Position numbers and translations under genes: made by a program. The notes below the pieces were generated by a model. The model saw only the letters and a list, made by a program, of their open reading frames with translations, searched no databases and was not told the DNA's origin. Shown piece by piece: positions 7,831 to 57,784 of a stretch of DNA of 64,000 nucleotides. Source of the DNA: Rhodospirillales bacterium (GTDB taxonomy: Bacteria > Pseudomonadota > Alphaproteobacteria > UBA828); NCBI GenBank assembly GCA_028818565.1, contig JAPPNV010000307.1, positions 16,374 to 80,373 on the forward strand, written 5' to 3'. Positions within the stretch are counted from its first letter, which is position 1. Each line of letters begins with the position of its first letter.

Positions 7831-7912
7831 CCGCCGCTTGCCACATGGGAGATTGCGGCGCTGCGGCGATCGACTAAGGTCTTGCCGCGCGACAACACGG
7901 ATCGATCGAGCC

Positions 7913-12418: not shown

Positions 12419-12621
12419 GGGTGTACACCGGGGTTGATCCCGCCCGCCGACTAGGGGGCGTCAAGCAGCTACCGTAACCGTGCACGTCGTCCCTGTATAT
12501 ACTGCTAAACGAGCGATAAATTTGGCCTTACGGTCCAAGAGACTTGCAGAAATGCAGCTGACCAGTGAGCACCCCTGTTGCGAAAAATTACGCTTCCTTC
12601 GGCCGACCTCTACTTTTCTTC

Positions 12622-13701: not shown

Positions 13702-13712
13702 CTTACACGCTC

Positions 13713-32603: not shown

Positions 32604-32907
32604 CGCGCGCTTCCGCAGCAGACTGAACCAGTCCAGCCGCGGTCGGGAGAAATTTAGAGTGGACCACGGTACGGGACGTGACGAGGCGGGGGCCGGCAAT
32701 CATTCCTCGTCGTGCTTAGGCATCGCGCCCGGCTGCACACACCCTTAACTCGGGTCGTAGTAGCCATGTAATGATCCGTAGATCGTGCCGCACCGGAAAA
32801 TTCCGGGACATAGCGGGATATTGCTGTTGTTGAGTGCGGAAGATTGACGACCAACCCGTGCGATAGTGTCGCGAGGCTCACCCCGCGCTGCTGGAGGACC
32901 GCCCCCT

Positions 32908-33489
32908 ATGTCCAGACTACCGCTGACCGACCCGCAAGACCTGCCGCCTTTCCTTGAGAGCATGCACGACGGTGCCGCGGAGAACGACTGGTCGACGCGC
33001 CATTGCGCCCGCGTCTTCGCGGCGCATCCGGATATCCTGGAGCGATATCTCGCCTTCTACTATCCCTTCCACGCGAGCGAGCCGGGAAGCCTGTTGGACA
33101 GCCGCATCAAGGAGCTGGTTCGGCTGCGCATCGCGACCCTCAACGGCTGCAAGACCTGCAAGGCGGCACGGCTCGCACCGGGCGAGGTCAGCGAGCGGGA
33201 GGCCGCGGTGGGGGTCGACGAGCCGGCCGAGGCGGCGTTTTCGGCGCGCGAGCGGGCCGCGCTCGCGCTCGCCGAACAGATGGCGCTCGATCACCACGCC
33301 TTCGACGACGCGGCGATGAGCGCGTTACGTCGGCACTTCTCCGAGGCCGAGACGCTGGAGCTGATGATGATGATCGGCCAGTACATCGGCTTCGGCCGGA
33401 TGCTGGCGATGCTCCAGCTCGAAGAGACGCATTGCCCGATCGAGCCGGCCGTCGAATCTCAGCCCCAGACCGCCGAGTCCTTGAGGTAG
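32908..33489 (+). CDS. carboxymuconolactone-decarboxylase (AhpD-like) family protein
   Basis: ATG at residue 15 of the track ORF has GGAGGA about 10 nt upstream. The CMD motif context (RIATLNGCKTCKAA...) is present. Confidence 0.7.
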   Translation: MSRLPLTDPQDLPPFLESMHDGAAENDWSTRHCARVFAAHPDILERYLAFYYPFHASEPGSLLDSRIKELVRLRIATLNGCKTCKAARLAPGEVSEREAAVGVDEPAEAAFSARERAALALAEQMALDHHAFDDAAMSALRRHFSEAETLELMMMIGQYIGFGRMLAMLQLEETHCPIEPAVESQPQTAESLR

Positions 33490-34247
33490 TCATGCACCAC
33501 GCGTCCGAAGTCGAGGTCGAAGTCCACCACGGCGAAGAATCCGCCGAGGATGCGCACGGGTGCCAGTTGATGCCATGAATCGGCGGCGGTGCTTGCGAGC
33601 GTGAGCGCGGCGCGGCCGGCGTAGAGCTCTGGGCTGCCGTCCCCGCTCTTGCGCAGCGCGCCTGTCACGTCGAGGCGCACCAGCTCCGAGACGCTCGGCC
33701 GCACCGCGGTCTCCGCGCTCGGGATATGGCGGTAGGACAGCACCGGCGATTCGGCGAGTTCGTCGGGCGAGGCCTTGCGGTCGCACACCATCGAGGCGGT
33801 CATCAGGCGCTGCCCGCGCGGCCGCTCCACAGTGAGCAGGAGCTGCTCCATATAGGGCATGGTGTCGCCGCCCCAGTTGTGCTCGATCACGGCGATCTTC
33901 TTGGCGTAGCCCCAGATCTCGCGGCCCGCGCCGAGCGGGATGTCGTTATCCACCAGGATCGAGGGCTGATACATGTAGCGCGTACCGTCCAGCATCACGT
34001 CGACCATGACGAAGGCCTCGTGATAGGGGCCGAAGGCCGAGAACGGGACCCAGCGCGCCCACGAGGTGCAGATTACCGGATCGTCCGCCGGCTCCAGATG
34101 GGGCGGCAGCAGCTCCATCACCGCAGCGCTGTCGGCCTCGTAGCGGATCATGAGGTCCTGCACGCCGCGGAAGGGATAAGGCGGGGCGGCGTACATCGGG
34201 CCGCCGAGCGGCATGCTGAAGTGGCGCTTGAAGGTAGCGATGTCCAT
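33459..34247 (-). CDS. acetoacetate decarboxylase (ADC) family protein
   Basis: 262 aa. MDIATFKRHFSMPLGGPMYAAPPYPFRGVQDLMIRYEAD... is a typical ADC-family double-beta-barrel N-terminus. Its 3' end overlaps the convergent CMD gene by 31 nt. Confidence 0.65.
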   Translation of the reverse strand: MDIATFKRHFSMPLGGPMYAAPPYPFRGVQDLMIRYEADSAAVMELLPPHLEPADDPVICTSWARWVPFSAFGPYHEAFVMVDVMLDGTRYMYQPSILVDNDIPLGAGREIWGYAKKIAVIEHNWGGDTMPYMEQLLLTVERPRGQRLMTASMVCDRKASPDELAESPVLSYRHIPSAETAVRPSVSELVRLDVTGALRKSGDGSPELYAGRAALTLASTAADSWHQLAPVRILGGFFAVVDFDLDFGRVVHDYLKDSAVWG

Positions 34248-34271
34248 GGTGGGTCTCCCTGGCGCGCGGGC

Positions 34272-35045
34272 CTAGCCGTTCTCCGTGTCGAGCGCGGACC
34301 AATCGTCGAGCCGGCCGTAGAGGTAGGGCACGAATTCTTCGGCCGGGAGCCGGGCCAGCGGGCGGCAGGTGGAGAGCAGATCGCCCTCGATGTAGGAGGC
34401 GCCGCGCAACTCGCAGATCTCGATGTCGGCCAGCGGATCGTGCACTGTCGAGCGCAGCGCGAGCGTGCCGGTCCCCTCCCGCCGCACGGTCAGATGGTTG
34501 TCGAACTCGGCCAGCGTGAGGACAGGGTCGTCCTCAAGGCCGACACCGGTGCATGACGGTAGCGCCTTGATGTTGAAGTTGGCGCCCTTCTCGCGGCCGG
34601 GCTCCCGCTCGTGGGGCAGCGTCGCCTCGATCTCGATCACACGCGTGCCGAGCCGCTCGATGTAGCCGTGCATGGCATCCCCGCGCCGCTGCAGGCGCGT
34701 CGTGGCCTGCTTCTTGGGCTCGCCGAAGAGATCTCGCCCGAAGATGATCGCGTGGTCCTGATCCATGAACATGGCGAGCACGTAGGGCGCCTCGATTTCC
34801 CCGTGCCGGGCCATGACGTAGATGGCGCCGCCGGCGAAGTCGGCCACGCAGTTGGAGCGCCAGCGGCCCACCATCGCCGTCACCAGCGGCTCCGCCACGG
34901 GCTCGAGCCTGGGCGGCAGAATCTCGGCGACGATCTCCGGCCGCGTGAGAAAATCGACCATCAGCATCTCGGCGCCGACGAAGCGGGGCCGCTTCAGCAC
35001 CGCCTCGATGCGCTTCACTTCCTCCGGCGTTTTCACGAAGCCCAT
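34272..35045 (-). CDS. acetoacetate decarboxylase (ADC) family protein, paralogue
   Basis: 257 aa. It is distantly similar to the downstream ADC-family gene and is the same length class. It lies directly after the ABC ATPase genes. Confidence 0.65.
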   Translation of the reverse strand: MGFVKTPEEVKRIEAVLKRPRFVGAEMLMVDFLTRPEIVAEILPPRLEPVAEPLVTAMVGRWRSNCVADFAGGAIYVMARHGEIEAPYVLAMFMDQDHAIIFGRDLFGEPKKQATTRLQRRGDAMHGYIERLGTRVIEIEATLPHEREPGREKGANFNIKALPSCTGVGLEDDPVLTLAEFDNHLTVRREGTGTLALRSTVHDPLADIEICELRGASYIEGDLLSTCRPLARLPAEEFVPYLYGRLDDWSALDTENG

Positions 35046-35080
35046 GACACGACCCTCCTCGTGTAAATGGCGCGATCCGA

Positions 35081-35788
35081 TCAGGCGCCCAGATAGGCGC
35101 GGCGCAGCCGCTCGGAATCTCGAAGCGCGTCGACGGTGCCGCTGAAGCTCACTTCGCCGCCGGAGATAACGGTCCCATTGTCGGCGACCCGAAGCGCGAA
35201 CTCGGCGTTTTGCTCGGCGACGATGATGGTGAGCCCCAGCGACTTCAGCGCGCGGAACGTGTCGGCGAGCGTGTTGATGATGGCGGGTGCGAGGCCCAGC
35301 GTCGGCTCGTCCACCATGAGCAGCCGGGGCTGCGCCATCAGGCCGCGCGCGATGGTGAGCTGCTGCTGCTCGCCGCCCGAGAGCGTGCCACCCGCCTGCC
35401 GGGCGCGCTCCTTGAGGATCGGAAACATCGCGTAGTTGCGCTCGATCAGCTCGCGCGTCTTCGTCCGTTCGCGAATGTGAACGCTCGCACCCACCAGCAG
35501 ATTGTCGAGCACGCTCATCTCCGGAAAGATGCGCCGCCCTTCGGGCACGTGGGCGATGCCGTCCAGCACGATCCTGTCGGGCGCGCGACGGATGAGCGAC
35601 TTCCCTTCGAAATTGATCTGCCCGGCAAGCGGGCGCATGAGGCCGCTGATCGCGCGCAGGATCGAGGTCTTGCCTGCGCCGTTTGGGCCAAGCAGCGCGC
35701 AGACCTCGCCCTGATCCACCGACAGGTTGAAACCGCGCACCACGCGGTTCACCCCGTACGCGAGCGTCAGATCGTCGATCTCCAGCAT
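35081..35788 (-). CDS. branched-chain-amino-acid-type ABC transporter ATP-binding protein (LivF-like)
   Basis: Walker A (GPNGAGKTS), LSGGEQQ signature and Walker B (LLMVDEP) are present. Confidence 0.85.
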   Translation of the reverse strand: MLEIDDLTLAYGVNRVVRGFNLSVDQGEVCALLGPNGAGKTSILRAISGLMRPLAGQINFEGKSLIRRAPDRIVLDGIAHVPEGRRIFPEMSVLDNLLVGASVHIRERTKTRELIERNYAMFPILKERARQAGGTLSGGEQQQLTIARGLMAQPRLLMVDEPTLGLAPAIINTLADTFRALKSLGLTIIVAEQNAEFALRVADNGTVISGGEVSFSGTVDALRDSERLRRAYLGA

Positions 35789-35789
35789 C

Positions 35790-36539
35790 TCAGTGCTCGC
35801 CGCCGAGGTAGATGCTGACCACCTGTTCGTTCGCCCGGATCTCGTCGGGGGTGCCGGAGACCAGCAGCGCGCCGTGATGCATGACGAACAGGTACTCGCA
35901 GACGTCCATGACCACTTCCATGTTGTGGTCGATCAGGAGCATGGTGAGCCCGCCCCGCTGGCATTCGCGCAGGTGCTCGATCAGATCGAAGGACTCCTCC
36001 CGGCTGAAGCCGGCGAAGGGCTCGTCGAGCAGGAGCACCTTGGGGCCGAGAGCCAGCGCCTGGGCGATCTCGGCGCGCCGTCGCATCAGGTGGCTGAGAT
36101 CGGTCGGCAGGTCGGCGCGCACAGCCTCCAGCTCGAAGAATTCGAGGAGCGCGTCGCATCGCGCGTCCTCGTCGCCGACACAGCCTGGGTAGCTGAGATC
36201 GCGGCCGCCGTGCCGGCCTCCCCAGATCATCGCCGTCCTGATGTTTTCCTCCACCGACTCTTCGGTGAAGAGACGGTTCTTCTGGTAGGTACGGCTGAGG
36301 CCGCTGCGCGCGACCTTGTAGGACGGCAGGCGGTGGATCGGCTTCGAGTCCAGCATTACCGTGCCCGCATCGGGCGTCGCATGCTTGGTCACGAGGTTGA
36401 CGAAGGTGGTCTTGCCGGCGCCGTTCGGCCCGATCAGGCCGACCAGCGCCCCGCGCGGCACGTCGAAGCTCACGTCGCGCACGGCTTCGACGCCGCCGAA
36501 GCGCTTGCTCAGATCGCGCACCTCCAGAATGGCGTCCAT
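35790..36539 (-). CDS. branched-chain-amino-acid-type ABC transporter ATP-binding protein (LivG-like)
   Basis: GPNGAGKTT, the LSHLMRRRAEIAQAL region and LLLDEPFAG are present. The stop is 2 nt from the LivF-like start. Confidence 0.85.
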   Translation of the reverse strand: MDAILEVRDLSKRFGGVEAVRDVSFDVPRGALVGLIGPNGAGKTTFVNLVTKHATPDAGTVMLDSKPIHRLPSYKVARSGLSRTYQKNRLFTEESVEENIRTAMIWGGRHGGRDLSYPGCVGDEDARCDALLEFFELEAVRADLPTDLSHLMRRRAEIAQALALGPKVLLLDEPFAGFSREESFDLIEHLRECQRGGLTMLLIDHNMEVVMDVCEYLFVMHHGALLVSGTPDEIRANEQVVSIYLGGEH

Positions 36540-36545
36540 CGGCGC

Positions 36546-37583
36546 CTACTTTCCCCGCGTCGCGGCGCCGAGCGCCTGCGCCACGATCTGCCTGATGCCG
36601 ACGGACTCGAGGGCGAAGTGCCAGAGCAAATTGGCGCCGCCCCAGAGCCCACCGCGGAAGAACAGGACCGTGACCACGATCAGGCCGCCGAGGACGATCT
36701 GGTTCCACTTGCCGAAGTCCTGGATGAACTGATCGAGAACCACCAGGAAGACGACGCCGATGGCGGGCCCCAAAAGTGTGCCCGAGCCGCCGATGATGAC
36801 GTAGATCACATATTGGAAGGAGCTCCAGATCGTGAACGAGCTCGGGTCGATGGCGATCTGCATCGAGGCGTAGAGCGCGCCGGAGAGGCCCGCGAAGCCG
36901 GCGGCAAAGACGAAGACAAGCTGCTTGTAGCGGAAGACGTCGAGGCCGCGCGCGGCCGCGAGATCCTCGTCCTGCCGGATCGCGCTCAAGGCGCGCCCCA
37001 CGTGGCCACGCGCGAGCCACCAGGAGGCAAACGCCGCGATCACGAGGAAGAAGAGCACCACGATGAGGAAGCGCTGGTTGGTGACGAAGGCGTAGTCGCC
37101 AAGCGCGGGCCTGGGGATGCCGGCGGTGCCGTGCGGGCCGCCGGTGAACCACTCCCAGCTGTCGAACATGATGTAGAGGAGCTGGCCGACGGCCAGCGTG
37201 CCGATGGCGAAGTGGTAGCCGCGCAGCCGGAACAGCGGATAGCTCAGCAGGTACGCGAGCGCGCTGGTGATGATGATGGCGCAGGGCAGCGCGGCCCAGA
37301 AGTCGAACTCGAACTGCTGCACCGTGAGCACGCCGACCACGTAGGCGCCGACGCCGACGAATCCGCCCTGCCCCATTGCGAGGTAGCCCATGTGGCCCAT
37401 GAGCAGCCCGAAGGGGATGACCGCGATCATCGCCGTGCCCGCGCCCACCAGCAGACGCAGGTGATAGTTGTTGTCGACCACAGCCCACAGGATGCCGAGG
37501 AAGGCGAGCAGGACGAGCCAGCCGATCACGGCCCGCGTGCGGCGATCCCGAAGCGATATCCGGTGGGCCGGGAGGAGCGTCAT
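36546..37583 (-). CDS. branched-chain-amino-acid-type ABC transporter permease (LivM-like)
   Basis: 345 aa polytopic permease. The start overlaps the upstream permease stop by 4 nt. Confidence 0.8.
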   Translation of the reverse strand: MTLLPAHRISLRDRRTRAVIGWLVLLAFLGILWAVVDNNYHLRLLVGAGTAMIAVIPFGLLMGHMGYLAMGQGGFVGVGAYVVGVLTVQQFEFDFWAALPCAIIITSALAYLLSYPLFRLRGYHFAIGTLAVGQLLYIMFDSWEWFTGGPHGTAGIPRPALGDYAFVTNQRFLIVVLFFLVIAAFASWWLARGHVGRALSAIRQDEDLAAARGLDVFRYKQLVFVFAAGFAGLSGALYASMQIAIDPSSFTIWSSFQYVIYVIIGGSGTLLGPAIGVVFLVVLDQFIQDFGKWNQIVLGGLIVVTVLFFRGGLWGGANLLWHFALESVGIRQIVAQALGAATRGK

Positions 37584-38455
37584 GCGTTGCGATCCGGCAA
37601 GCCGAAGAGCCCTTGCGGGCGGATCATCAGAATCGCCAGGAGCACCAGGAAGGGCACCAGATCGCCGAGCTTGGAGCCGACGTAGAAGACCGTGAGGTTG
37701 TACAGAATGCCGAGGATGAGGCCGGCGACGATGGAGCCCGCGATGCTGCCCATCCCGCCGAAGATGATGATGACCAGCGCCATCAGCAGCGGCTGGAAGC
37801 CCATGTCCGGCCGCACGTTGAAAAGCGCGCCGAGCATGGCCCCGGCGGCGCCGCCGAGCGCGCCGCCGAGGAAGAACACGATTGCCGCCACCCGGCGCTT
37901 CTTGATGCCCATCAGCGCGGCGGTTTCCTCCCCCTGCGCGGTGGCGCGCATGGTGCGCCCGAGATGGGTGCGGTAGACGACGAAATAGAGCGATGCGAAC
38001 AGGACAAGAGTGATGGCGATGGTGACCAGCCGCGCTCCGTCGATACGGATTTCCCCGGCCGTCAGCGCCCAGTCCTCACCCGGCATGGCGATCGGCCGCG
38101 CCTCGAAGTCTCCCCAGATACGGAGCGCCGTGGTGCCGAGAACCATGTAGAGGCCGAGCGAGGCCAGAAGCTGGTCGGTGAGCGGGCGGCGCTGGAGGAA
38201 GCGGAAGACGGCGTTCTCCAGCACGATGCTGAGCAGCCCCATGACGATCATGGCGGCGAAGAAGCCGACGAAGAAATGTGTGCCGAGCTGCGTCGCGACC
38301 ACGTAGGCCACGAATCCGCCAAGCATGATGAGCTGCCCGTGGGCGAGGTTGATGACCCTGTAGACGCCGAAGATGAGGGCGAGCCCCGCGGCCGCCACGG
38401 CAAGGTTCATGCCGTACGAGGCGCCGTAAATCAGTTGTTGGGCGAACGCGGTCAC
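37580..38455 (-). CDS. branched-chain-amino-acid-type ABC transporter permease (LivH-like)
   Basis: MTAFAQQLIYGASYGMNLAVAAAGLALIFG... is a LivH-type N-terminus. Confidence 0.8.
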   Translation of the reverse strand: MTAFAQQLIYGASYGMNLAVAAAGLALIFGVYRVINLAHGQLIMLGGFVAYVVATQLGTHFFVGFFAAMIVMGLLSIVLENAVFRFLQRRPLTDQLLASLGLYMVLGTTALRIWGDFEARPIAMPGEDWALTAGEIRIDGARLVTIAITLVLFASLYFVVYRTHLGRTMRATAQGEETAALMGIKKRRVAAIVFFLGGALGGAAGAMLGALFNVRPDMGFQPLLMALVIIIFGGMGSIAGSIVAGLILGILYNLTVFYVGSKLGDLVPFLVLLAILMIRPQGLFGLPDRNA

Positions 38456-38552
38456 GAGATCACGCCCTTGCCGGCGGGGGACAGAATATGGACGTCAGAC
38501 AAACCGAGCCGCGAAGCGGTCCAGCCGGCGCGACCGCCCGGCGATTGAGGGC

Positions 38553-38595
38553 AAAAAAAGAGGCGGCGCACACCCTCTCGCGGGCAGGCGCCGCC
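38553..38595 (-). terminator. rho-independent terminator/attenuator between the SBP gene and the permease genes
   Basis: On the minus strand the sequence reads GGCGGCGC-ctgcccgcgagagggtgt-GCGCCGCC followed by TCTTTTTTT. That is an 8-bp GC stem plus a 7-U tract, about 50 nt after the SBP stop. Confidence 0.6.
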
Positions 38596-38647
38596 CCGGC
38601 GTCTTCTCAACCTGCGGAATCCGGCCTGGACCGTCCCCGCTACAGGG

Positions 38648-40027
38648 CTACTTCGGCAGCTTGTCGCCGTACACGTACGGGCCGTAGAAGAGCTCGTCCC
38701 GATAGCTGATGCCGGTATAGAAGACCTTCTCGTCCGCCACGCCGATGATGTACTCGGTCGCGAAGAGCTGGCCGGTCTTCTCGCCGGTATCGGGCCGGGT
38801 GAAGAACTCGTTTGTCGGCCCGCGCAGGCCGTTGATCTTCAGGTTGCGCCAGGCTTCCACGATCTTGTCGTTGTCGGTGTGGTCGCCCGAGGCCTGCACG
38901 CCGTAGAGGAACCAGATGGCGGCGTCGTAGGCGCCGCGATCGAAGGGGCTGGAGTTCCCGACCTCGGTGTCGCCGTACTTCGCGTTGTAGATGGGCACGT
39001 ACTTCTCGACGCGTGCGAGGGTCGCCTCGTCCTGCGCCGGGTTGTGCTCCTGCCAGCCCCAGACGTAGCCGGACGACATGTTGATGCCCTGGTCCTTGGC
39101 CACGTCGACGAAGATCTGCAGCATCAGCACGTCGTTGCCGAGCAGGATGATCTCGCCGGTCTCGTAGTTGAGGCCCTGCTTCTTCATCTCGTTCATGATC
39201 GCCAGCATGTCGGGGAAGATGTAGGCGTCCATGAGCACGATGTCGGGGTCCTGCTCGGCGAGCTTGGCGACGTGGGGCGCGAAGTCGGTGGTGCCGAAGG
39301 GATAGAGCACCGCCCAGTCGTGCTGGTACTCGTACCGGCCGCCGCCCTTCTCCACCGCTTCCTGCCAGCCGATGGAGCCGTGCACGGTGTAAAGCTCGTT
39401 GCGGCCGATGAAGCCGAGCTTCTTGCGCCCGTCGAAGAGGGCGGGGTCGATGCCGTGCTCCGCCAGCCTCTCGGGCGTTTCGTGGATGAACTCGCCCATG
39501 CCGTGCTTCTCGATCACGCCGGTGTCGGTGATGTCGTGGCCATACTTGCGGCCCACGGTCATCGCCGGGCTCGAGCAGATCGCGCAGATGCTGATGATGC
39601 CCTGCGGATCGAGGATCGAGGCGGCGGACAGCAACGCCGAATTCATCCGGGGGCCCCAGATCGCGCGGGCTTCATCCTGCTCGACCAGGCGGATGACGGC
39701 GTCGATCGACTTCTTGTCTTCCGAGACGTCGTCATAGGCCGTCCATTCGATGGGGATGACCTTGTCGCCGATCTTGAGCCCACCGCCTTCGCAGGGCTGC
39801 GGCGGTACGGCCTCGACGATGCAATCGCCCTTCATGAACTGCTCGACGGCGAGCCTCACGGCCGCTTCCTCGAAGAGGCCCAGGAACGAGGCCGGGCCCG
39901 ACAGCGTGAAGACGCCGCCGAACTTGAAGGTGTCTTCCGCCTTGGCCAGTTGCGGGCCGGCCACAAGCCCCGCACAGAGCGCCGCACCCAGCAGCCCTGC
40001 TCGAATTACTCCAAAGGATGATGCCAT
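38648..40027 (-). CDS. ABC transporter periplasmic substrate-binding protein (family 4 / Leu-Ile-Val-binding-protein type)
   Basis: The signal peptide is MASSFGVIRAGLLGAALCAGLVAGPQLAKA. It is a 459-aa type-I periplasmic binding fold, first gene of the operon. Confidence 0.8.
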   Translation of the reverse strand: MASSFGVIRAGLLGAALCAGLVAGPQLAKAEDTFKFGGVFTLSGPASFLGLFEEAAVRLAVEQFMKGDCIVEAVPPQPCEGGGLKIGDKVIPIEWTAYDDVSEDKKSIDAVIRLVEQDEARAIWGPRMNSALLSAASILDPQGIISICAICSSPAMTVGRKYGHDITDTGVIEKHGMGEFIHETPERLAEHGIDPALFDGRKKLGFIGRNELYTVHGSIGWQEAVEKGGGRYEYQHDWAVLYPFGTTDFAPHVAKLAEQDPDIVLMDAYIFPDMLAIMNEMKKQGLNYETGEIILLGNDVLMLQIFVDVAKDQGINMSSGYVWGWQEHNPAQDEATLARVEKYVPIYNAKYGDTEVGNSSPFDRGAYDAAIWFLYGVQASGDHTDNDKIVEAWRNLKINGLRGPTNEFFTRPDTGEKTGQLFATEYIIGVADEKVFYTGISYRDELFYGPYVYGDKLPK

Positions 40028-40127
40028 CTCTCTCTCCCTGAGTTCCGCGCCGTGCGCGCTACAAAACCACTCAAATTCGGCTCGGAGTATGGGTTAGCGC
40101 CCCAAATGGTGTCAAACGACGCTCCGG

Positions 40128-40916
40128 TCACGAGCCGAACGCCTCGGTCAGGCGACCGCGCCACCCGTGATTGGTCATGTCCAGCTGGATCGGCGTGACC
40201 GAAATCGCGTTCTCGTGGATCGCATGGAGATCGGTTCCGGGGTGTTTGCCACCGTCCTTGTAGCTGATCTCCACCCAGAAGTAGGGCACGTGGCGCGTGT
40301 CGATGCGCCCGTCGATGGTGAAGGAACCCGGCGGCCGCTGCCCCTGGGCGGTGATGCGGACGCCGCTCACCGATTCCGGCAGCGCATCCGGGAAGTTGAC
40401 GTTGACCAGCGTGCCCGAGGGCCAGTCCGGCAGGCGCATGAGGGTCTCGATCACGTCCGGTGCGAAGGCTTCCGCCGTGGCCCAGAGCGCCTCGCCGCCC
40501 ATGGTGAACACCTGGCTGAGCGCGATCGAGCGGATGCCGAGCAGGGTTCCCTCCATCGCTGCGGCGATGGTGCCGGAATAGGTCATGTCCTCCGCGAGGT
40601 TCGCGCCGCGATTGATGCCGGAGAGGAGGACCGTAGGCGGGCTCTCGGTCATCAGCTCGTGGATCGCCATCAGCGCGCAGTCGGTGGGCGTGCCGTCCAC
40701 CGCGTAGCGCCTCTCGCCCATCTGGCGCAGGCGGATCGGCGTATGCATCGAGATCGAATGGCCGGCACCGCTCCGCTCGTGATCCGGCGCGACGACCCAG
40801 ACGTCGTCTGACAGGCTCCGCGCGATCGCCTCGAGAATCTTCAGCCCCCTGGCGTGGATGCCGTCGTCATTGGTGACCAGGATGCGGTGGTGGGAGAGAT
40901 CGCTCTCCGCTGGCAT
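40128..40916 (-). CDS. surE: 5'/3'-nucleotidase SurE
   Basis: Internal ATG with AAAGGA SD gives MPAESDLSHHRILVTNDDGIHARGL..., the SurE signature. The upstream part of the track ORF is noise. Confidence 0.85.
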   Translation of the reverse strand: MPAESDLSHHRILVTNDDGIHARGLKILEAIARSLSDDVWVVAPDHERSGAGHSISMHTPIRLRQMGERRYAVDGTPTDCALMAIHELMTESPPTVLLSGINRGANLAEDMTYSGTIAAAMEGTLLGIRSIALSQVFTMGGEALWATAEAFAPDVIETLMRLPDWPSGTLVNVNFPDALPESVSGVRITAQGQRPPGSFTIDGRIDTRHVPYFWVEISYKDGGKHPGTDLHAIHENAISVTPIQLDMTNHGWRGRLTEAFGS

Positions 40917-43450: not shown

Positions 43451-44947
43451 ATGCAGATCGGCGAATACATCCGGCGCGCGGGCGCCATGTTCGGCGAGGC
43501 GCCAGCGCTGACCGAGGGCGCGCGCACGCTGAGCTTCCGCGCACTCGACGAAGCGACGGACCGGCTCGGCAACGCGCTGCTGGTGGAAGGCTTCGAGCCG
43601 GGCGATCGCGTCGGCGTGCTGCTGCCCAACGGGATCGACTGCCTGATCGCCTACTACGCGCTTGCCAAGTGCGGCCTCGTGCGGGTCTCGCTCAACGTGC
43701 GCGAGACCGCGGCGGACCATCGCTACAAGTTGGGCGATAGCGGCGCGCGTGGACTCATCCACGACGGCTCTGGCAGTGCCGACGGCATCGATGTGGAACT
43801 CGTCTACGACCTCGACGCTCTGCGCCGGCTCATCGACGACGGCCCGCCCGGCGCCTGCCGCGTGGACCGCGACCTTGAGGCGCCCTTTCGCCTGGGCTTC
43901 ACCGGCGGGACCACCGGCGCGCCCAAGGCGGTCACGCTCACCACGCTGGGCGAGACTGCGGAGCTCTCGGCCTTTCTCATGGACCTGGTGCCGGACCTCG
44001 CGCCGGGCGACCGCTTTCTCCACGCCGCCCCCATCGCACACGCATCGGGCGCCTTCTTCCTGCCCTCGCTGGTGCGGGGCGTGCACCAATGGATCATGCC
44101 GCACTTCGACGCGGCCGGCTTCATCGCCATGGCCGCGCAGGGGCAGGCGACCCATACCTTTCTCGTGCCGACCATGCTGGCCATGATCATGGAGGAGCCC
44201 GCGCTGGAGACGGCGACGCTCCGCTTCAAGCGCATCTGCTACGGCGCTTCGCCCATCGCGCCGAGCCTCTTGGAGCGCGCCATGGACCGCTTCGGGCCGG
44301 TCTTCGCCCAGACCTACGGCCAGGCTGAATCGCCGATGGTTATCACCTGTCTCGGGCCGGAGGATCACGACCGCGTGGGCTCGTGCGGGCGGCCCTATAC
44401 CACCGTGGACGTGGCGATCTTCAACGATGACGACATGCCCGTGCCCACCGGCGAGCGGGGCGAGATCGTCTGCCGCGGCACCCAGCTCATGGCCCGTTAC
44501 TGGAACCGCCCGGAGGAGACGGCCAAGGCCTTCCGCAACGGCTGGCTCCATACCGGCGACATCGGCCGCATGGACGAGGACGGCTTCTTCTACATCCTCG
44601 ACCGAAAGAACGACATGCTCATCAGCGGTGGCTACAACGTCTATCCCCGGGAGATCGAAGACGTGCTGCTTGCGTACGAGGGCGTTGTCGAGGCCGCGGT
44701 CGTGGGCTTGCCCGACGAGAAGTGGGGCGACCGCGTTCATGCGGTGGTCGCCGGGCGGCCCGGCCTGGACCCGGAGGCCGTGCGGCTGTTCTGCCGCGAG
44801 CGGCTAGCGGGCTACAAGTGCCCGAAGAGCGTCGAGATCTGGGACACGCTGCCCAAGAGCGGGGCCGGCAAGCTCCTGCGCCGCGCCGTGCGCGACCGCG
44901 TTATCGCGGCGGCAGCCACCGAGGCGCCCGTGCAGCCGGGCAACTGA
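43451..44947 (+). CDS. AMP-dependent synthetase/ligase (acyl-CoA synthetase family)
   Basis: AMP-binding motifs FTGGTTGAPKAV, YGQAESP, GWLHTGDIG and the lysine-containing C-terminal KSGAGKLLRR are present. Confidence 0.85.
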   Translation: MQIGEYIRRAGAMFGEAPALTEGARTLSFRALDEATDRLGNALLVEGFEPGDRVGVLLPNGIDCLIAYYALAKCGLVRVSLNVRETAADHRYKLGDSGARGLIHDGSGSADGIDVELVYDLDALRRLIDDGPPGACRVDRDLEAPFRLGFTGGTTGAPKAVTLTTLGETAELSAFLMDLVPDLAPGDRFLHAAPIAHASGAFFLPSLVRGVHQWIMPHFDAAGFIAMAAQGQATHTFLVPTMLAMIMEEPALETATLRFKRICYGASPIAPSLLERAMDRFGPVFAQTYGQAESPMVITCLGPEDHDRVGSCGRPYTTVDVAIFNDDDMPVPTGERGEIVCRGTQLMARYWNRPEETAKAFRNGWLHTGDIGRMDEDGFFYILDRKNDMLISGGYNVYPREIEDVLLAYEGVVEAAVVGLPDEKWGDRVHAVVAGRPGLDPEAVRLFCRERLAGYKCPKSVEIWDTLPKSGAGKLLRRAVRDRVIAAAATEAPVQPGN

Positions 44948-45555: not shown

Positions 45556-47316
45556 ATGGGTGCCGTCGGCCGCTGGGTCCTTTCCCTTGACGGCGCTGCG
45601 TTGCCCGACGGTGCGCTTGTCGGGGGCAAGGCGTGGGGCATCGCCTTCATGCGCCACGCGGGCCTCCCGGTGCCGCCCGCCTTCGTGGTGACGACAGAGG
45701 CCTGCCGCGCCTACCTCGCCGAGGGCCAGTTGCCGGATGGCCTCACCGACGAGCTTCACGCCGGCATCGCCATGCTGGAGGCGGAGACCGGGCGCCGCTT
45801 CGGCGTGCCCGAGCGCCCGTTGCTGCTGGCGGTCCGCTCCGGCGCCGCCATCAGCATGCCGGGCATGCTGGATACGGTGCTCAATCTCGGGATCGACGAA
45901 GAGATTGAGGCGGCTCTGGCGCGAGAAAGCGGCGACGTGGCCTTCGCCCGCGACACCCACCGGCGCTTCCACGAGATGTACGCGCGCATCGTGCTCAAGG
46001 CGGGGATCGACGGGCTTCCGCCCGAGGGATCCGTCGAGGAATGGCGGGCGGCCGTGGCGGAGGCGGGGGCCGCAGCCAGGGTGCCGGAGGCGCCGGTCGA
46101 TCAGCTTCTCGGCGCGGTTCGTGCCGTCTTCGACTCATGGAACGGGCGGCGCGCGAAGCGTTATCGCCGGCATCACGGGCTCGCGGATGACGCGGGCACC
46201 GCCGTCACGGTGCAGGCCATGGTGTTTGGCAACCTCGGCGCGAACAGCGGGACGGGCGTGCTTTTCAGCCGCAATCCGCTCACCGGTGCGCCTGTGCCTT
46301 ACGGCGAGTATCTTGCCTGCGCCCAGGGGGAGGACGTGGTCTCCGGCCAGCGGACGCCGCAGGGACTCGATGCGCTGTCGTCGTCCCTGCCGGAGGCGCA
46401 CGCCGCCCTGATCGACGCCGCGGGCCGGCTGGAGGCGCTGAACCGGGATGTGCAGGACATCGAGTTCTCGGTACAAAATGGCGCGCTCTACCTGTTGCAG
46501 ACCCGCACCGCCGCCCGGGCTCCCGCAGCGGCCATGCGCATCGCCGTCGATCTGGTGAACGAGGGAACCATCTCCTCCGACGAAGCGCTCGCCCGCGTCA
46601 GCGCGGCCCAGGTCCGGACGCTGCTCATGCCCCGCCTCGATGAGGGCGCCGGAGAGGACGCCGCCCTGCTCGCGGAAGGCGAGGGCGCGAGTCCTGGTGT
46701 CGGCATCGGCAAAGTCGTGCTGGATGCCGACGCGGCCGAGGCGAGCGGCGCGGCCGGCGAGGACGTGGTGCTGGTGCGCCCGACCACCAGCCCGGAGGAC
46801 GTGCACGGCATGGTCGCCGCCCGCGCGGTCGTGACGGCGACCGGGGGTGCGACCTCGCACGCCGCCGTGGTAAGCCGCTCCCTCGGCGTTCCCTGCGTCG
46901 TCGGCTGCGGCGAAGGCGTGGGCGCGGCGCTTGCGGGCAGGGAGGTGACGGTGGATGGCAAGGCCGGGCAGGTGTTCGATGGTGTCCTGCCGGTGAGCAT
47001 TCCCGCGGAGACGGACGATCCGTACCTGCGCCGGATTGCGGCATGGGCCCGCGCGGCCGCGCCCATCGCGGTCTATCGCGCCGAAGATTCGGCGCCCAAC
47101 GGCGCGGTCGATCTCGACCGCTTGCCCGGCGGTGAGGAACCGGAGCGAATGCCCGCGCTGCTCGCGGGGGCTCCCGGCGCAAAGGGCGGCGCGCTCGCCA
47201 GCGATGCGGGTGTCGCGGCCGCCGTTGCCGCCGGCCTCGACTTCATCGTTGTTCGCCACGCTCTGCCGGCCCTGCTCGCGGCCTGTGCCGCCGCGCGCGC
47301 CGAGGCTGCCACATGA
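45556..47316 (+). CDS. pyruvate-phosphate-dikinase-like protein: PPDK_N nucleotide-binding domain plus central phosphohistidine domain, lacking the C-terminal PEP/pyruvate TIM barrel
   Basis: MGAVGRWVLSLDGAALPDGALVGGKAWGIAFMRHAGLPVPPAFVVTTEACRAYLAEG...LLLAVRSGAAISMPGMLDTVLNLG...RRFHEMYARIV...VFDSWNGRRAKRYRRHHGLADDAGTAVTVQAMVFGNLGANSGTGVLFSRNPLTG...YGEYLACAQGEDVVSGQRTP is collinear with the PPDK N-terminal domain. ATGGATSHAAVVSRSLGVPCVVGC is the catalytic His swivel domain. The protein ends about 80 aa later, so there is no room for the roughly 300-aa PEP-utilizers C domain. Confidence 0.8.
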   Translation: MGAVGRWVLSLDGAALPDGALVGGKAWGIAFMRHAGLPVPPAFVVTTEACRAYLAEGQLPDGLTDELHAGIAMLEAETGRRFGVPERPLLLAVRSGAAISMPGMLDTVLNLGIDEEIEAALARESGDVAFARDTHRRFHEMYARIVLKAGIDGLPPEGSVEEWRAAVAEAGAAARVPEAPVDQLLGAVRAVFDSWNGRRAKRYRRHHGLADDAGTAVTVQAMVFGNLGANSGTGVLFSRNPLTGAPVPYGEYLACAQGEDVVSGQRTPQGLDALSSSLPEAHAALIDAAGRLEALNRDVQDIEFSVQNGALYLLQTRTAARAPAAAMRIAVDLVNEGTISSDEALARVSAAQVRTLLMPRLDEGAGEDAALLAEGEGASPGVGIGKVVLDADAAEASGAAGEDVVLVRPTTSPEDVHGMVAARAVVTATGGATSHAAVVSRSLGVPCVVGCGEGVGAALAGREVTVDGKAGQVFDGVLPVSIPAETDDPYLRRIAAWARAAAPIAVYRAEDSAPNGAVDLDRLPGGEEPERMPALLAGAPGAKGGALASDAGVAAAVAAGLDFIVVRHALPALLAACAAARAEAAT

Positions 47317-50634: not shown

Positions 50635-51804
50635 ATGCGCCGCGCCTGCATCGTCGATGTCGTCCGCACGCCCTTCGCCAGGGGGCGGGAGGGCGGTGCG
50701 CTGAGCGCGGTTCACCCGGTCGACCTGCTCGCGAAGACGCTCGAGGGCCTGGTCGCGCGCACCGGCATCGACCCCGGCGCGGTCGACGACGTGATCGCGG
50801 GCTGCGTCATCCAGGTGGGCGAGCAGGCCGCCAACATCGGCCGCCAAGCCTGGCTCGCGGCGGGCTTTCCCGAGACCGTCCCCGCCGTCACCATCGATCG
50901 CAAGTGCGGCTCGGCGCAGCAGGCGATGGACTTCGCGGCCCAGGGCGTGATGGCGGGGGCCTACGACCTCGCCATCGCCTGCGGGGTCGAGATGATGAGC
51001 CGCGTGCCCATGGGCAGCAACCGGCGCGGTAAGGACCATCTGGGTCCGATGTTGCGCCGGCGCTATGCGGAAGGCCTGGTGCACCAGGGCATCTCCGCCG
51101 AGCTGATCGCCGCACGCTGGGGCCTCTCGCGCGAAGCACTCGACGCCTATGCGCTGCGCTCGCACCGGCGCGCCGCGGCTGCCGAGGACAAGGGCCTCTT
51201 TGCGCGCGATATCGTACCCATCGACAGCGCTGCCAGGGACGAAGGCATCCGCCGCAACACGAGCGCCGAGAGGCTGGCCGCGCTGGAGCCGGCGTTCGTG
51301 GACGCCGGTACGGCCGAGCGCTTTCCCGAGATCGGCTGGGTGGTGACGGCGGGGAATTCAAGCCAGGTTTCCGATGGCGCATCGGCGCTGCTGATCGCTT
51401 CGGAAGAGGCGGCGCGGCGGTTGAAACTCGCCCCGCGCGCCGCCATCACCCACTTTGCGGTCTGCGGCGACGACCCCGTGCTCATGCTGACCGGAATCAT
51501 CCCGGCGACACGGAAACTGCTGGCGCGGAGCGGCCGGACCTTCGACGACATCGACTGCTTTGAGGTCAACGAAGCCTTCGCGTCCGTGGTGCTGGCGTGG
51601 GCGGAGACGCTGGGTGCGGACCTCGACCGGGTCAACGTCAACGGCGGCGCCATCGCCTTCGGCCACCCCGTCGGCGCGTCGGGCGGACGGCTCACGGCCA
51701 ACCTGATCGGCAGCCTGGAGGAGAACGGCGGGCGCCTCGGCCTTCAGACCATGTGCGAGAGCGGCGGCATGGCCAACGCAACGCTGATCGAGCGGCTGGG
51801 TTGA
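50635..51804 (+). CDS. thiolase (acetyl-CoA C-acyltransferase family)
   Basis: RKCGSAQQA holds the active-site Cys. NVNGGAIAFGHPVGASG and the CESGGMANA C-terminal motifs are present. Confidence 0.85.
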   Translation: MRRACIVDVVRTPFARGREGGALSAVHPVDLLAKTLEGLVARTGIDPGAVDDVIAGCVIQVGEQAANIGRQAWLAAGFPETVPAVTIDRKCGSAQQAMDFAAQGVMAGAYDLAIACGVEMMSRVPMGSNRRGKDHLGPMLRRRYAEGLVHQGISAELIAARWGLSREALDAYALRSHRRAAAAEDKGLFARDIVPIDSAARDEGIRRNTSAERLAALEPAFVDAGTAERFPEIGWVVTAGNSSQVSDGASALLIASEEAARRLKLAPRAAITHFAVCGDDPVLMLTGIIPATRKLLARSGRTFDDIDCFEVNEAFASVVLAWAETLGADLDRVNVNGGAIAFGHPVGASGGRLTANLIGSLEENGGRLGLQTMCESGGMANATLIERLG

Positions 51805-55901: not shown

Positions 55902-56116
55902 CTTCGGGAAATCGCGCCCCGCCCCACCTCGTTATTCCGGCAAGGCTCACGCCGCGCTGGACGTGCAGGCCTTGGAGCCGGCACGATCCTTCAACAATTC
56001 AAACAGTGATGTGAACCGCACCGCGGACGCGTTGACTCGGTCGCGGCCCGGCCGCATCGTGCGCCGCGAACTTGAGCTGGCGCGGCGGCGGAACAGGAAC
56101 CGCGTACGGGGGTTGC

Positions 56117-57784
56117 ATGAAAGCGTCCGATCTTCTGGTCAAGTGCCTCGAAACCGAGGGCGTGACCCACATCTTCGGCATTCCCGGCGAGGAGAACGCC
56201 GACGTGATGATGTCGCTGATGGAGAGCGACATCGACTTCGTCCTCTGCCGCCACGAGCAGGCAGCCGCCTTCATGGCCGACGTCTACGGCCGGCTCACGG
56301 GCAAGGCCGGCGTCTGCCTCGGCACACTGGGCCCGGGCGCCACCAACCTCGTGACCGGCGTCGCCGACGCCAACATGGACCGCGCGCCGCTGGTCTGCCT
56401 CATCGGCCAGGCCGGCACCCAGCGCCTCCACAAGGAGAGCCACCAGAACATGGACTCGGTCTCCATGTTCCGCCCCATCACCAAGTGGGCGCAGACGGTG
56501 CACCAGCCGGACAACATCCCCGAGATCGTGCGCAAGGCCTTCAAGGTCGCCGAGGCCGAGAAGCCGGGCGCGGTGCTGATCGAGCTGCCGGAGGATATCG
56601 CCGAGCACGAGGCGGCTGGCGCACCGATTGCCCCGATCAAGACGCGGCGCCCCGGCGCCGACTACAAGGCGGTAGCGCGGGCGGTGGACGCGATCATGGG
56701 CGCCAGGAACCCGCTGATCCTGGCCGGCAACGGCGCCATCCGCAAGCGCGCGTCCACGCAGCTCAGGCGCCTCGCGGACCTCACCGGCATCGGCGTCGTC
56801 AACACCTTCATGGGCAAAGGGGCCGTTCCCAGGAGCGACGAGCACTGCCTCTACACCGTGGGCCTGCAGGGCAAGGACCACATCATCGCAGCGCTGCGCG
56901 AGGCGGACGTGATCGTCTCCGTCGGCTACGACCTGGTGGAGTATTCGCCCGCCTTCTGGAACCGGGGCGCGGAGAAGACCATCGTCCATATCGACTTCTG
57001 GCCGGCCGAGGTGGACGGCGACTACCAGGTAGAGGTCGACGTCGCCGGCGACATCGCCGATGCGCTCTGGCAGATCAACGAGGAGATCGAGCGGCGCAGC
57101 GCGGACGGCGGCGACGGCCTGCCGCTCTTCGATATCGGTAACCGGCAGGCGCTCCGCACCACCATCCACGACGACCTCACGGCGGAACGGGGCAGCAGCC
57201 ACTTCCCCATGCGCCCGCAGAAGGTGCTCTACGACGTGCGCAGCGTCATGGGGCCGGAGGACGTGCTGCTCTCGGACGTGGGCGCCCACAAGATGTGGAT
57301 CGCCCGCTACTACCAGTGCGACGAGGCGAACACCTGCCTGATCTCCAACGGCTTTTGCACCATGGGCTTCGCCTTCCCCGGCTCCCTCGGGGCGAAGATA
57401 GCCATGCCGGAGCGGCGCATCCTCTCGATCAACGGCGATGCCGGGTTCTTCATGAACGCGCAGGACATGGAGACCGCAGTCAGGCGCAGGCTCAACGTGG
57501 TCGCCATGATCTGGATGGACGGCGCCTACGGGCTGATCGAGTGGAAGCAGCGGAACGCCTTCGACGGCCGGCACTTCGACCTCTCGTTCACCAACCCCGA
57601 TCTCGCGCTCTGGGCCCAGTCCTACGGCGCCTGGGGCCGCACCATCGAGAAGGCCGGCGAGCTCGTGCCGGCGCTGGAGGAGGCGTTCCAGCAGCCGGGG
57701 CCGGCGGTGATCGGCGTGCCCATCGACTACGGCGAGAACATGAAGCTGTCTGCGCGCCTCGGGAAGATCGAATACCCGATCTGA
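56117..57784 (+). CDS. acetolactate synthase large subunit-type thiamine-diphosphate enzyme
   Basis: MKASDLLVKCLETEGVTHIFGIPGEEN... is a TPP-enzyme N-terminus. The central domain and the C-terminal TPP-binding motif (INGDAGFFMNAQDMETAVR...) are present. Confidence 0.85.
   Translation: MKASDLLVKCLETEGVTHIFGIPGEENADVMMSLMESDIDFVLCRHEQAAAFMADVYGRLTGKAGVCLGTLGPGATNLVTGVADANMDRAPLVCLIGQAGTQRLHKESHQNMDSVSMFRPITKWAQTVHQPDNIPEIVRKAFKVAEAEKPGAVLIELPEDIAEHEAAGAPIAPIKTRRPGADYKAVARAVDAIMGARNPLILAGNGAIRKRASTQLRRLADLTGIGVVNTFMGKGAVPRSDEHCLYTVGLQGKDHIIAALREADVIVSVGYDLVEYSPAFWNRGAEKTIVHIDFWPAEVDGDYQVEVDVAGDIADALWQINEEIERRSADGGDGLPLFDIGNRQALRTTIHDDLTAERGSSHFPMRPQKVLYDVRSVMGPEDVLLSDVGAHKMWIARYYQCDEANTCLISNGFCTMGFAFPGSLGAKIAMPERRILSINGDAGFFMNAQDMETAVRRRLNVVAMIWMDGAYGLIEWKQRNAFDGRHFDLSFTNPDLALWAQSYGAWGRTIEKAGELVPALEEAFQQPGPAVIGVPIDYGENMKLSARLGKIEYPI

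Follow-up and report, generated by a model that had tools for sequence, protein, structure and literature searches.

The 64,000-nt stretch of the Rhodospirillales contig JAPPNV010000307.1 analyzed here (hereafter the window) carries, between positions 33459 and 40027 of its minus strand, a unit of seven open reading frames (ORFs) in which the genes of a Liv-type (HAAT family) ATP-binding cassette importer are followed by two genes for proteins of the acetoacetate decarboxylase (ADC) superfamily, here called ADC_A and ADC_B. The seven ORFs fill this interval with coding-type GC content at third codon positions (GC3 0.87-0.93, in a window with GC ~0.68), and the genes called independently on the source contig are the same seven; this contig is an ENA metagenome scaffold whose close relatives are metagenome-assembled genomes (MAGs) of Alphaproteobacteria or Rhodospirillales. 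When related loci are compared, ADC_B, ADC_A and the CMD-like gene that adjoins them in the window form a module that is linked across phyla to importers and to biotin carboxylase, ligase and thiolase genes, of which the window holds a cluster on its plus strand (Table 1).

A preliminary description of this DNA had read the unit as an operon running from a binding-protein gene through a hairpin and LivH-, LivM-, LivG- and LivF-like genes to two ADC-family genes (257 and 262 aa), and all seven ORFs were recovered on the minus strand with the same coordinates. Packing is tight: the LivH and LivM genes overlap by 4 nt, LivM and LivG are separated by 6 nt and LivG and LivF by 1 nt, and the last two gaps (35 nt between LivF and ADC_A, 24 nt between ADC_A and ADC_B) each hold a Shine-Dalgarno site, GAGGAGG before ADC_A and GGGAGA before ADC_B. 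No convincing terminator was found between the transporter genes and the ADC genes, and the packing and ribosome-binding sites likewise bear out the earlier proposal that the two are coupled. The order binding protein-LivH-LivM-LivG-LivF-ADC-ADC is retained in 10 of 12 sister loci, with ADC_B identity down to 81%; one exception is cut off upstream of LivM (L011), and in the other ADC_A was not picked up (L012). Upstream, a gene for a SurE-family phosphatase is co-directional with the operon and lies 100 nt from the binding-protein gene. Downstream, the CMD-like gene is convergent with ADC_B and the 3' ends of the two overlap by 31 nt (33459-33489), which leaves no space for a terminator. An assignment of the CMD-like gene as PcaC was not supported, the Pfam match being weak (E 2e-6) and NCBIfam favoring peroxidase-related or YciW-like families, below cut-off.

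The spacer between the binding-protein gene and LivH measures 192 nt and contains a terminator-like hairpin followed by a run of seven T residues, the inner stem of which was also picked up by a consensus terminator scan. This hairpin is strain-specific: most sister genomes lack it, and three have a weaker form. A conserved attenuator after the binding-protein gene was considered and rejected, as the hairpin and T-run of the window are missing from most sister MAGs; at most, the hairpin would serve this strain to produce the binding protein in excess. A sigma-70-like promoter match is located in the gap between the SurE and binding-protein genes.

The two ADC-superfamily proteins were examined in an alignment of 113 ADC-family sequences from related loci with three solved ADCs, using C. 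acetobutylicum numbering. The true ADCs in this alignment carry R29, E61, E76, K115 and K116. Throughout the ADC_B clade (~85 sequences and the second paralogue of Nanopelagicales), K115, K116 and E76 are present, R29 (replaced by Val, Ala or Met) and E61 are missing, and column 27 holds an invariant Arg; in the window protein these features appear as K116, K117 and E77 (the equivalent of Glu76), with Val in the Arg29 column and Arg at position 27 instead. The ADC_A clade (21 sequences) likewise keeps K115 and K116, with K116R in one relative. Column 76 is occupied by Gly or Leu, column 61 by Met or Cys and column 29 by Ala, Gly, Ser or Val, and the Arg at column 25 does not vary. The window ADC_A keeps the lysines as K111 and K112, has Ala in the Arg29 column and lacks equivalents of Glu61 and Glu76. 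The preliminary description had singled out the catalytic lysine and the Glu and Arg residues of ADCs as informative. The lysines proved to be kept in all ~85 ADC_B and 21 ADC_A relatives, save for the single K116R substitution, whereas the other residues were only partly found: Glu76 is present in ADC_B and absent from ADC_A, and Arg29 is absent from both. Loss of the lysine had been named in that description as a ground for giving up the idea, and the idea passes this check.

Similarity scores place both proteins near, and outside, the true ADCs. ADC_B scores 96.3 bits and ADC_A 54.3 bits against the NCBIfam true-ADC model NF002614 (cut-off 150 bits), and the closest solved relatives are true ADCs (3bgt, 3c8w and 3bh2; E 1e-16 to 1e-21), with an E-value of 5e-19 for ADC_B against PDB entry 3bgt and 9e-21 for an ADC_A profile against true ADCs. 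Much weaker matches were obtained for both paralogues to 5upb, 3cmb and MppR (E 1e-3 to 1e-4). ADC_A and ADC_B are only 28% identical over 112 residues and therefore do not stem from a recent duplication. With the true ADCs of C. acetobutylicum and Chromobacterium violaceum (3bh2, 3bgt) they have in common the PF06314 domain and the Lys115-Lys116 pair; they differ in lacking Arg29 and Glu61 and in falling short of the family cut-off, ADC_A also in lacking Glu76, and their context is catabolic and not solventogenic. Because Arg29 is missing from both and Glu76 is present in ADC_B only, neither appears to be a canonical acetoacetate decarboxylase. Judged from the alignment, the acidic residue that goes with decarboxylation is gone from ADC_A. 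The lysines, Glu76 and a relocated, clade-invariant Arg in ADC_B make it most likely a decarboxylase of some beta-keto acid, though not of acetoacetate; ADC_A, in which the lysines are kept and Glu76, Glu61 and Arg29 are lost, probably catalyzes a different, non-decarboxylating step or handles a second compound.

The same residues can be read differently, namely that both paralogues are non-decarboxylative, family V-like Schiff-base enzymes acting on enones or 2-oxo acids (by hydration, retro-aldol cleavage, aldol-dehydration or isomerization), which would make a methyl ketone, plus an aldehyde, for the carboxylase pathway. Known non-decarboxylases of the superfamily include Sbi00515, Swit_4259 and MppR. 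These three have the fold and the Schiff-base lysine in common with the window proteins and are far weaker in sequence similarity (E 1e-3 to 1e-5); they occur in catabolic or biosynthetic clusters and have moved away from decarboxylation in function. The loss of Arg29 and Glu61 from both paralogues and of Glu76 from ADC_A agrees with such a role, as do the presence of 4zbo, 5upb and 4jm3 among the weak PDB matches and the genes found nearby: relatives of ADC_A adjoin enone reducers (PRISE and OYE-type in L088, a PIG3-type reductase of the zinc-ADH (MDR) family in the Xanthobacter locus L087), and genes for short-chain dehydrogenases/reductases (SDR), alcohol dehydrogenases (ADH) and aldo-keto reductases (AKR) are the commonest neighbors of all. 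We nevertheless regard this alternative as unlikely, given that the true ADCs (E 1e-16 to 1e-21) are far closer matches of both proteins than 5upb, 3cmb and MppR are, that ADC_B has Glu76 with an invariant Arg nearby, and that a CoA ligase of the beta-keto-acid type adjoins ADC_B in L014. In that locus the ligase, of the acetoacetyl-CoA-synthetase type, lies directly upstream of ADC_B, a hint that the substrates of the two have the beta-keto acid class in common.

To place these proteins in context, one genome per species was scanned, which yielded 80 loci with ADC_B relatives (~90 related loci overall); the window proteins were mapped onto these loci, and all locus ORFs were also clustered de novo. 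Linkage was counted over 45 independent loci of at least 15 kb, with the window lineage counted once and neighbors taken within 10 kb of ADC_B. An AMP-forming ligase gene is found near ADC_B in 33 of the 45, a PYC_OADA carboxyltransferase gene in 22, Liv-type ATPase genes in 15 and a second ADC gene in 10. Liv-type genes and the carboxyltransferase gene are each present in 8 of the 10 two-ADC loci, and Liv-type genes in 7 of the 35 single-ADC loci. The pair also recurs with the CMD-like gene across related loci: CMD orthologues (55-68% identity) lie a few kb from ADC_A or ADC_B in L030, L068, L088 and L091, with two genes intervening in L068 and one in L091. Other recurring neighbors are enone reductases, genes for hydrophobic-substrate uptake (in Kineobactrum), and acyl-CoA dehydrogenase and APH-type kinase genes that resemble lva genes. 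The earlier suggestion that the two divergent paralogues form a heteromer is unlikely to hold as an obligate state, and such a complex was rejected as a necessity, since each occurs without the other: ADC_A without ADC_B in L087, L088 and L089, and ADC_B alone in most loci.

The importer itself has the five-part architecture of the HAAT family, with a Peripla_BP_6 binding protein whose N-terminus is signal-peptide-like, two BPD_transp_2 permeases and two ATPases, one of them with a BCA_ABC_TP_C tail. This architecture is common to the LIV-I/HAAT group (LivJ/K-HMGF, UrtABCDE and the aromatic-acid-binding Peripla_BP_6 proteins of Rhodopseudomonas palustris), as is a terminator-like hairpin after the binding-protein gene. 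The window importer differs in that no subunit reaches an equivalog cut-off and in its long, 459-aa binding protein, which is remote from solved ones (best PDB match 4evs, E 1e-5) and scores 25.7 bits against the NCBIfam LivJ/K model, for which the cut-off is 477. The permeases and ATPases match the NCBIfam Urt models as well as or better than the Liv models, all below cut-off: UrtB (181 bits) is the best match of the LivH-like permease, LivM and UrtC are both matched by the LivM-like permease, and the LivF-like ATPase scores 222 bits against UrtE and 212 bits against LivF. The importer thus belongs to the HAAT family by architecture and is no LivJ/K equivalog.

The binding protein of the window has no detectable orthology to the binding proteins of the actinobacterial or Xanthobacter loci, and importers have therefore been recruited repeatedly. 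Three loci or locus pairs (L077, L061/L063 and L090) have ADC_B as the last gene of an importer operon of the CUT2 type (sugar-type, Peripla_BP_4); the CUT2 operon adjoins the SurE and unk518 cluster in L077, and in L090 a divergent ADC_A adjoins it. ADC_A relatives of Xanthobacter autotrophicus have as flanking genes two for Peripla_BP_6 binding proteins, one for a reductase of the ADH family, one for an SDR and a distant ADC gene. The linkage of ADC genes to an importer that the preliminary description had noted in a single operon thus recurs, with non-orthologous importers of the HAAT and CUT2 types. These observations bear directly on a further alternative, coincidence, in which an ordinary amino-acid or urea-type importer happens to lie beside ADC genes that are passengers. 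The near-equal scores of the transporter subunits against Liv and Urt models, the non-orthologous binding proteins of different lineages and the strain-specific nature of the strong hairpin would all fit such a coincidence. It is most improbable, however, in view of the association of the ADC pair with importers in Alphaproteobacteria, Solirubrobacteraceae, Nanopelagicales, Xanthobacter and the CUT2-bearing loci, the contrast between two-ADC and single-ADC loci in Liv-type genes (8 of 10 against 7 of 35), and the finding that every transporter subunit falls below all equivalog cut-offs.

The plus-strand cluster diverges from the SurE gene (Table 1). Its truncated protein related to pyruvate phosphate dikinase (PPDK) has an ATP-grasp domain and a phospho-His domain with a TSHAAVV motif, and lacks the phosphoenolpyruvate (PEP)/pyruvate barrel. 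The gene for the small conserved protein unk200 is always close to that for unk518, following it directly or after an intervening ligase gene, and unk518 homologues of 717-723 aa, about the summed length of the two, may be unk518/unk200 fusions. Orthologues of the AMP-forming ligase (55-57% identity) occur within the ADC operons of Nanopelagicales. Downstream of the thiolase gene lie genes for an SDR, a 3-hydroxyacyl-CoA dehydrogenase and a zinc-dependent ADH. A stand-alone gene for an acetolactate-synthase-like, thiamine-pyrophosphate-dependent enzyme (56072-57784, plus strand; PRK08322 740 bits, cut-off 509) lies 4 kb downstream of the thiolase gene, past the SDR, 3-hydroxyacyl-CoA dehydrogenase and zinc-dependent ADH genes and a further SDR gene.

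Table 1. Genes and sequence features of the importer-ADC unit and of the flanking cluster, in window coordinates.
Feature	Position	Strand	Basis
CMD/AhpD-like protein	32907..33489	+	Pfam CMD, E 2e-6
ADC_B, ADC-superfamily protein, 262 aa	33459..34247	-	PF06314, E 9e-48
ADC_A, divergent ADC-superfamily protein, 257 aa	34272..35045	-	PF06314, E 9e-41
LivF/UrtE-like ATPase, 235 aa	35081..35788	-	Pfam ABC_tran
LivG-like ATPase, 249 aa	35790..36539	-	Pfam ABC_tran and BCA_ABC_TP_C
LivM/UrtC-like permease, 345 aa	36546..37583	-	Pfam BPD_transp_2, E 2e-44
LivH/UrtB-like permease, 291 aa	37580..38455	-	Pfam BPD_transp_2, E 5e-38
Terminator-like hairpin with T7, possible partial terminator	38553..38597	-	RNAfold dG -31.1 kcal/mol
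Substrate-binding protein of HAAT (Liv-type) importer, 459 aa, signal peptide	38648..40027	-	Pfam Peripla_BP_6, E 1.9e-30
Sigma-70-like promoter match, TTGACA-18-CATACT	40086..40115	-	Consensus match only, 10/12 positions
SurE-family phosphatase	40128..40915	-	Pfam SurE; NCBIfam NF001490 335 bits, above cut-off; start from gene call
PEP-utilizers swivel-domain protein, 250 aa	41104..41856	+	Pfam PEP-utilizers, E 4e-7; phospho-His motif GGTVRSHLG kept
unk518, highly conserved, 518 aa	41853..43409	+	No Pfam or NCBIfam family, no known fold relative
AMP-forming acyl-CoA ligase	43451..44947	+	Pfam AMP-binding; NCBIfam matches all below cut-off
unk200, conserved, 200 aa	44951..45553	+	No family matches (Pfam, NCBIfam)
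Truncated PPDK-like protein	45556..47316	+	Pfam PPDK_N and PEP-utilizers; PRK05878 704 bits, cut-off 456
Biotin carboxyl carrier protein (BCCP), 159 aa	47313..47792	+	Pfam Biotin_lipoyl; NCBIfam BCCP 108 bits
Biotin carboxylase (BC), 452 aa	47792..49150	+	NCBIfam PRK08591 606 bits, above cut-off
Carboxyltransferase (CT), pyruvate-carboxylase-B/oxaloacetate-decarboxylase-alpha type, 486 aa	49167..50627	+	Pfam PYC_OADA; PRK09282 310 bits, cut-off 402
Thiolase	50635..51804	+	Pfam Thiolase_N and Thiolase_C; NCBIfam TIGR01930 above cut-off

A pathway with similar logic has been demonstrated experimentally. In the Hpe system of Rhodococcus rhodochrous GD02, a hydroxyphenyl methyl ketone is first phosphorylated by a PEP-synthase-type kinase (HpeHI), and only this phosphorylated form is carboxylated by a three-subunit biotin enzyme (HpeCBA); the phosphatase HpeD then removes the phosphate, after which a CoA ligase and a cleaving enzyme act (PMC9618137). 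Like the members of the Hpe/Acv group (HpeHICBADEF, AcvABCDEF with VceAB of Sphingobium SYK-6, and XccBCA of Aromatoleum), the window combines genes for a putative kinase of the PEP-synthase/PPDK type, a three-subunit biotin carboxylase, an AMP-forming ligase and a predicted enzyme for C-C cleavage to acetyl-CoA (PMC9618137), with a candidate for the phosphatase. The carboxylase subunits (57, 49 and 17 kDa in Hpe; 486, 452 and 159 aa in the window) match in size, a likeness of domain type and size. The kinase module differs, consisting in the window of the truncated PPDK (PRK05878), the swivel-domain protein, unk518 and unk200 and in Hpe of HpeH and HpeI, which are of the PpsA/PpsB type. Further differences are the phosphatase (a SurE candidate in place of the NagD-type HAD enzyme of Hpe), the ligase (FadD/MenE-like in place of AcsA-like) and the true thiolase that stands in place of HpeF; ADC-family genes, a CMD gene and an ABC importer are all missing from the Hpe/Acv systems as described. 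The plus-strand cluster therefore appears to follow Hpe/Acv logic but to fall outside that group on kinase type. The hydantoinase-type acetone and acetophenone carboxylases (Acx, Apc) perform the same task, using ATP to carboxylate a ketone and passing the resulting beta-keto acid on to CoA activation and thiolysis, but their enzyme family is unrelated, and the window relies on biotin chemistry. Neither these ADC clades nor a truncated-PPDK/unk518 carboxylase cluster turned up in our searches of the literature.

SurE is a candidate for the pathway phosphatase. No gene for a HAD/NagD-type phosphatase was found in the window cluster, and SurE is kept beside the cluster in alpha- and gammaproteobacterial loci (L030, L077, L078, L079 and L085), away from its usual housekeeping neighbors. 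In other lineages the cluster has a Y_phosphatase3 gene or a histidine-phosphatase-like gene (assigned by eye) in place of SurE, which looks like the non-homologous replacement of one pathway phosphatase. Chachezhania sediminis and a gammaproteobacterial MAG have the core cluster (SurE, thiolase-like, ligase, swivel-domain, unk518, unk200, PPDK, BCCP, BC, CT and thiolase genes) but neither ADC nor Liv genes. The importer and ADC genes are thus an addition to this core, which fits a feeder module.

In several loci ADC and carboxylase genes stand together. The most telling is L091, where all components of the window bar the importer form one co-directional string: unk518, unk200, PPDK, BCCP, BC, CT (75% identical to the window protein) and thiolase (67%), continuing with ADC_B (45%), ADC_A (64%), an SDR, CMD (61%), an SDR and an AKR. 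In L083 a swivel-domain (PEP-utilizers) protein gene is followed by unk518, unk200, BCCP, CT (67% identical) and ADC_B. The Nanopelagicales locus L075 has an operon of overlapping genes for BCCP, (BC), CT, ligase, thiolase, SDR and two ADC-family proteins (ADC and ADC'), convergent with a second operon of binding protein, LivHMGF, ADH, SDR and Y_phosphatase3 genes, and in Solirubrobacteraceae the layout is ADC_A, LivFGMH with the binding protein, ADC_B, CT-BC-BCCP and a histidine-phosphatase-like gene (assigned by eye). The functional link to the carboxylase cluster that the preliminary description had raised as a possibility is thus strongly supported, both by the 22 of 45 loci with a PYC_OADA carboxyltransferase gene near ADC_B and by the shared operons of L075, L083 and L091. 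Two paralogue types of carboxyltransferase can be told apart in these loci (L069, L052 and L091 against L054-L075): the first, 62-75% identical to that of the window, travels with unk518 and the dikinase, and the second, 41-49% identical, travels with ADC_B without the dikinase, while L069 has both types side by side.

The position of ADC_B directly after thiolase or carboxyltransferase genes in L075, L083 and L091 might alternatively mean that the ADC proteins act as a valve at the node between ketone and beta-keto acid, working on the pathway's own carboxylated and dephosphorylated product. Such a valve would turn beta-keto acid that is surplus or wrongly made back into the ketone, or would allow a single pathway to serve both ketones and beta-keto acids from outside; the beta-keto-acid-type ligase beside ADC_B in L014 and the aroylacetate-type intermediates known in the Hpe pathway would suit it. 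The ATP spent on carboxylation would be wasted, however, and it is hard to see selection keeping the valve across phyla; moreover, neither the second paralogue without Glu76 nor the repeated coupling to importer operons would be explained, and we consider this alternative quite improbable.

The distribution of the dikinase raises one further alternative, in which the ADC proteins run the reverse of the ADC reaction, the ketone, held as a lysine enamine, accepting CO2 from carboxybiotin, so that they would replace or assist the dikinase. Nanopelagicales and Solirubrobacteraceae do pair ADC genes with BCCP, BC and CT genes with no dikinase within 10 kb, and clusters of the Chachezhania type have the dikinase and no ADC gene. 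Against this stand the window, L083 and L091, which have dikinase and ADC genes together, the carboxylation carried out by HpeCBA without any ADC protein, and the presence of ADC and importer genes with no nearby carboxylase in L090 and L061. This scheme is accordingly rated very unlikely; if it were true, it would constitute a third, undescribed route of ketone carboxylation beside the hydantoinase-type Acx/Apc and phospho-handle Hpe routes.

Returning to the add-on character of the ADC and importer genes, we tentatively favor a model in which the minus-strand unit serves as an accessory front end, for uptake and conversion, to the plus-strand ketone-carboxylation pathway, a reading that we hold to be possible and somewhat short of probable. 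Gene content, the catalytic-residue pattern and the linkage across phyla are observations; the order of the steps, the decarboxylase activity, the part given to SurE as a phosphatase and the kind of substrate are inferred. The HAAT importer would take up a carbonyl-bearing compound or its alcohol precursor, and cytosolic ADC_B would form a lysine Schiff base with the beta-keto acid form and decarboxylate it to the ketone. ADC_A would perform a different Schiff-base step (hydration, retro-aldol cleavage or isomerization) or act on a second substrate. The dikinase module would then phosphorylate the ketone with ATP in the manner of Hpe/Acv, and three-subunit biotin carboxylation, dephosphorylation by SurE, CoA ligation and thiolysis would follow. 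The model needs the carboxyl group that is removed and the one that is added to be on different carbons, or the substrate of the ADC to be distinct from the product of the carboxylase. Overall, the earlier interpretation, in which an imported beta-keto or related acid is decarboxylated to a ketone that links to the carboxylase cluster, is partly supported.

A number of points count against the front-end model. Decarboxylation followed by re-carboxylation at the same carbon would be futile, and the lack of Arg29 and Glu61, with NCBIfam scores well below cut-off, means that decarboxylase activity is not assured. Among the characterized members of the superfamily, those that do not belong to family I act as cyclases or hydratase-aldolases (MppR, Sbi00515 and Swit_4259). 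The Nanopelagicales clusters have no visible kinase yet have a phosphatase-family gene, so the Hpe-like scheme may not apply everywhere. The imported ligand may differ between lineages, as the binding proteins are non-orthologous, and the hairpin after the binding-protein gene could partly uncouple expression. Finally, no sequence feature singles out one substrate. Levulinate/3-oxoadipate, acetoin/alpha-acetolactate, threonine/aminoacetone, acetone/3-hydroxybutyrate and ionone-type enones were considered, and each fits some of the neighbors (lva-like genes in Solirubrobacterales, an AlsS-like gene, BudC-like SDRs, Tdh-like ADHs and enone reductases); none was adopted because the SDR and ADH matches are all generic and below cut-off. 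The SDR, ADH and AKR neighbors and the CUT2 importers would fit aliphatic hydroxy-ketones and hydroxyphenyl methyl ketones equally well.

If the front-end model is true, two large uncharacterized clades of the ADC superfamily gain a physiological setting, that of a ketone-catabolism front end coupled to uptake, and a widespread ketone-carboxylation pathway, apparently undescribed in the literature searched, comes into view. This pathway would range over Alphaproteobacteria, Gammaproteobacteria and Actinomycetota, including the abundant freshwater Nanopelagicales and soil Solirubrobacterales, and its kinase module would include a conserved protein family without a known fold relative. It would also supply candidates for the bacterial use of small ketones, hydroxy-ketones and lignin- or isoprenoid-derived methyl ketones, and biotin-dependent ketone carboxylases are of interest for CO2-fixing biocatalysis. 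Every proposed chemical step has a precedent; the genes nevertheless make up a coherent and widespread module that is open to experiment. Cultured carriers exist in Kineobactrum sediminis, Xanthobacter autotrophicus and Chachezhania sediminis, making experiments feasible.

Several minor observations concern the related loci and the rest of the window. In many loci of Solirubrobacterales and Thermoleophilia (L015-L053 and L082), ADC_B ends an operon of the form SDR, AMP-ligase, SDR, ADC, beside which lie genes for an APH-type kinase, an acyl-CoA dehydrogenase, a TetR regulator and a nitroreductase, a set that resembles the levulinate (lva) operon. The same loci encode a 112-aa protein with no Pfam match that looks EthD-like by eye, and some Thermoleophilia loci encode an 816-aa neighbor of ADC_B that is of the hydantoinase-B (acetone-carboxylase-like) type by eye only.

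Elsewhere in the window, positions 12001-14000 have a GC content of 0.53 (~0.68 elsewhere). This low-GC stretch gave no Rfam match and may have been acquired; it contains a 166-aa ORF without a family and, on the minus strand, a gene for a Sel1-repeat protein (12622-13701), a kind of protein typical of host-associated bacteria. On the plus strand, a gene for an APH-family kinase (7838-9205, 455 aa) is followed by one for a class-III aminotransferase (9649-10974), a pairing reminiscent of amino-alcohol kinase/phospho-lyase systems.

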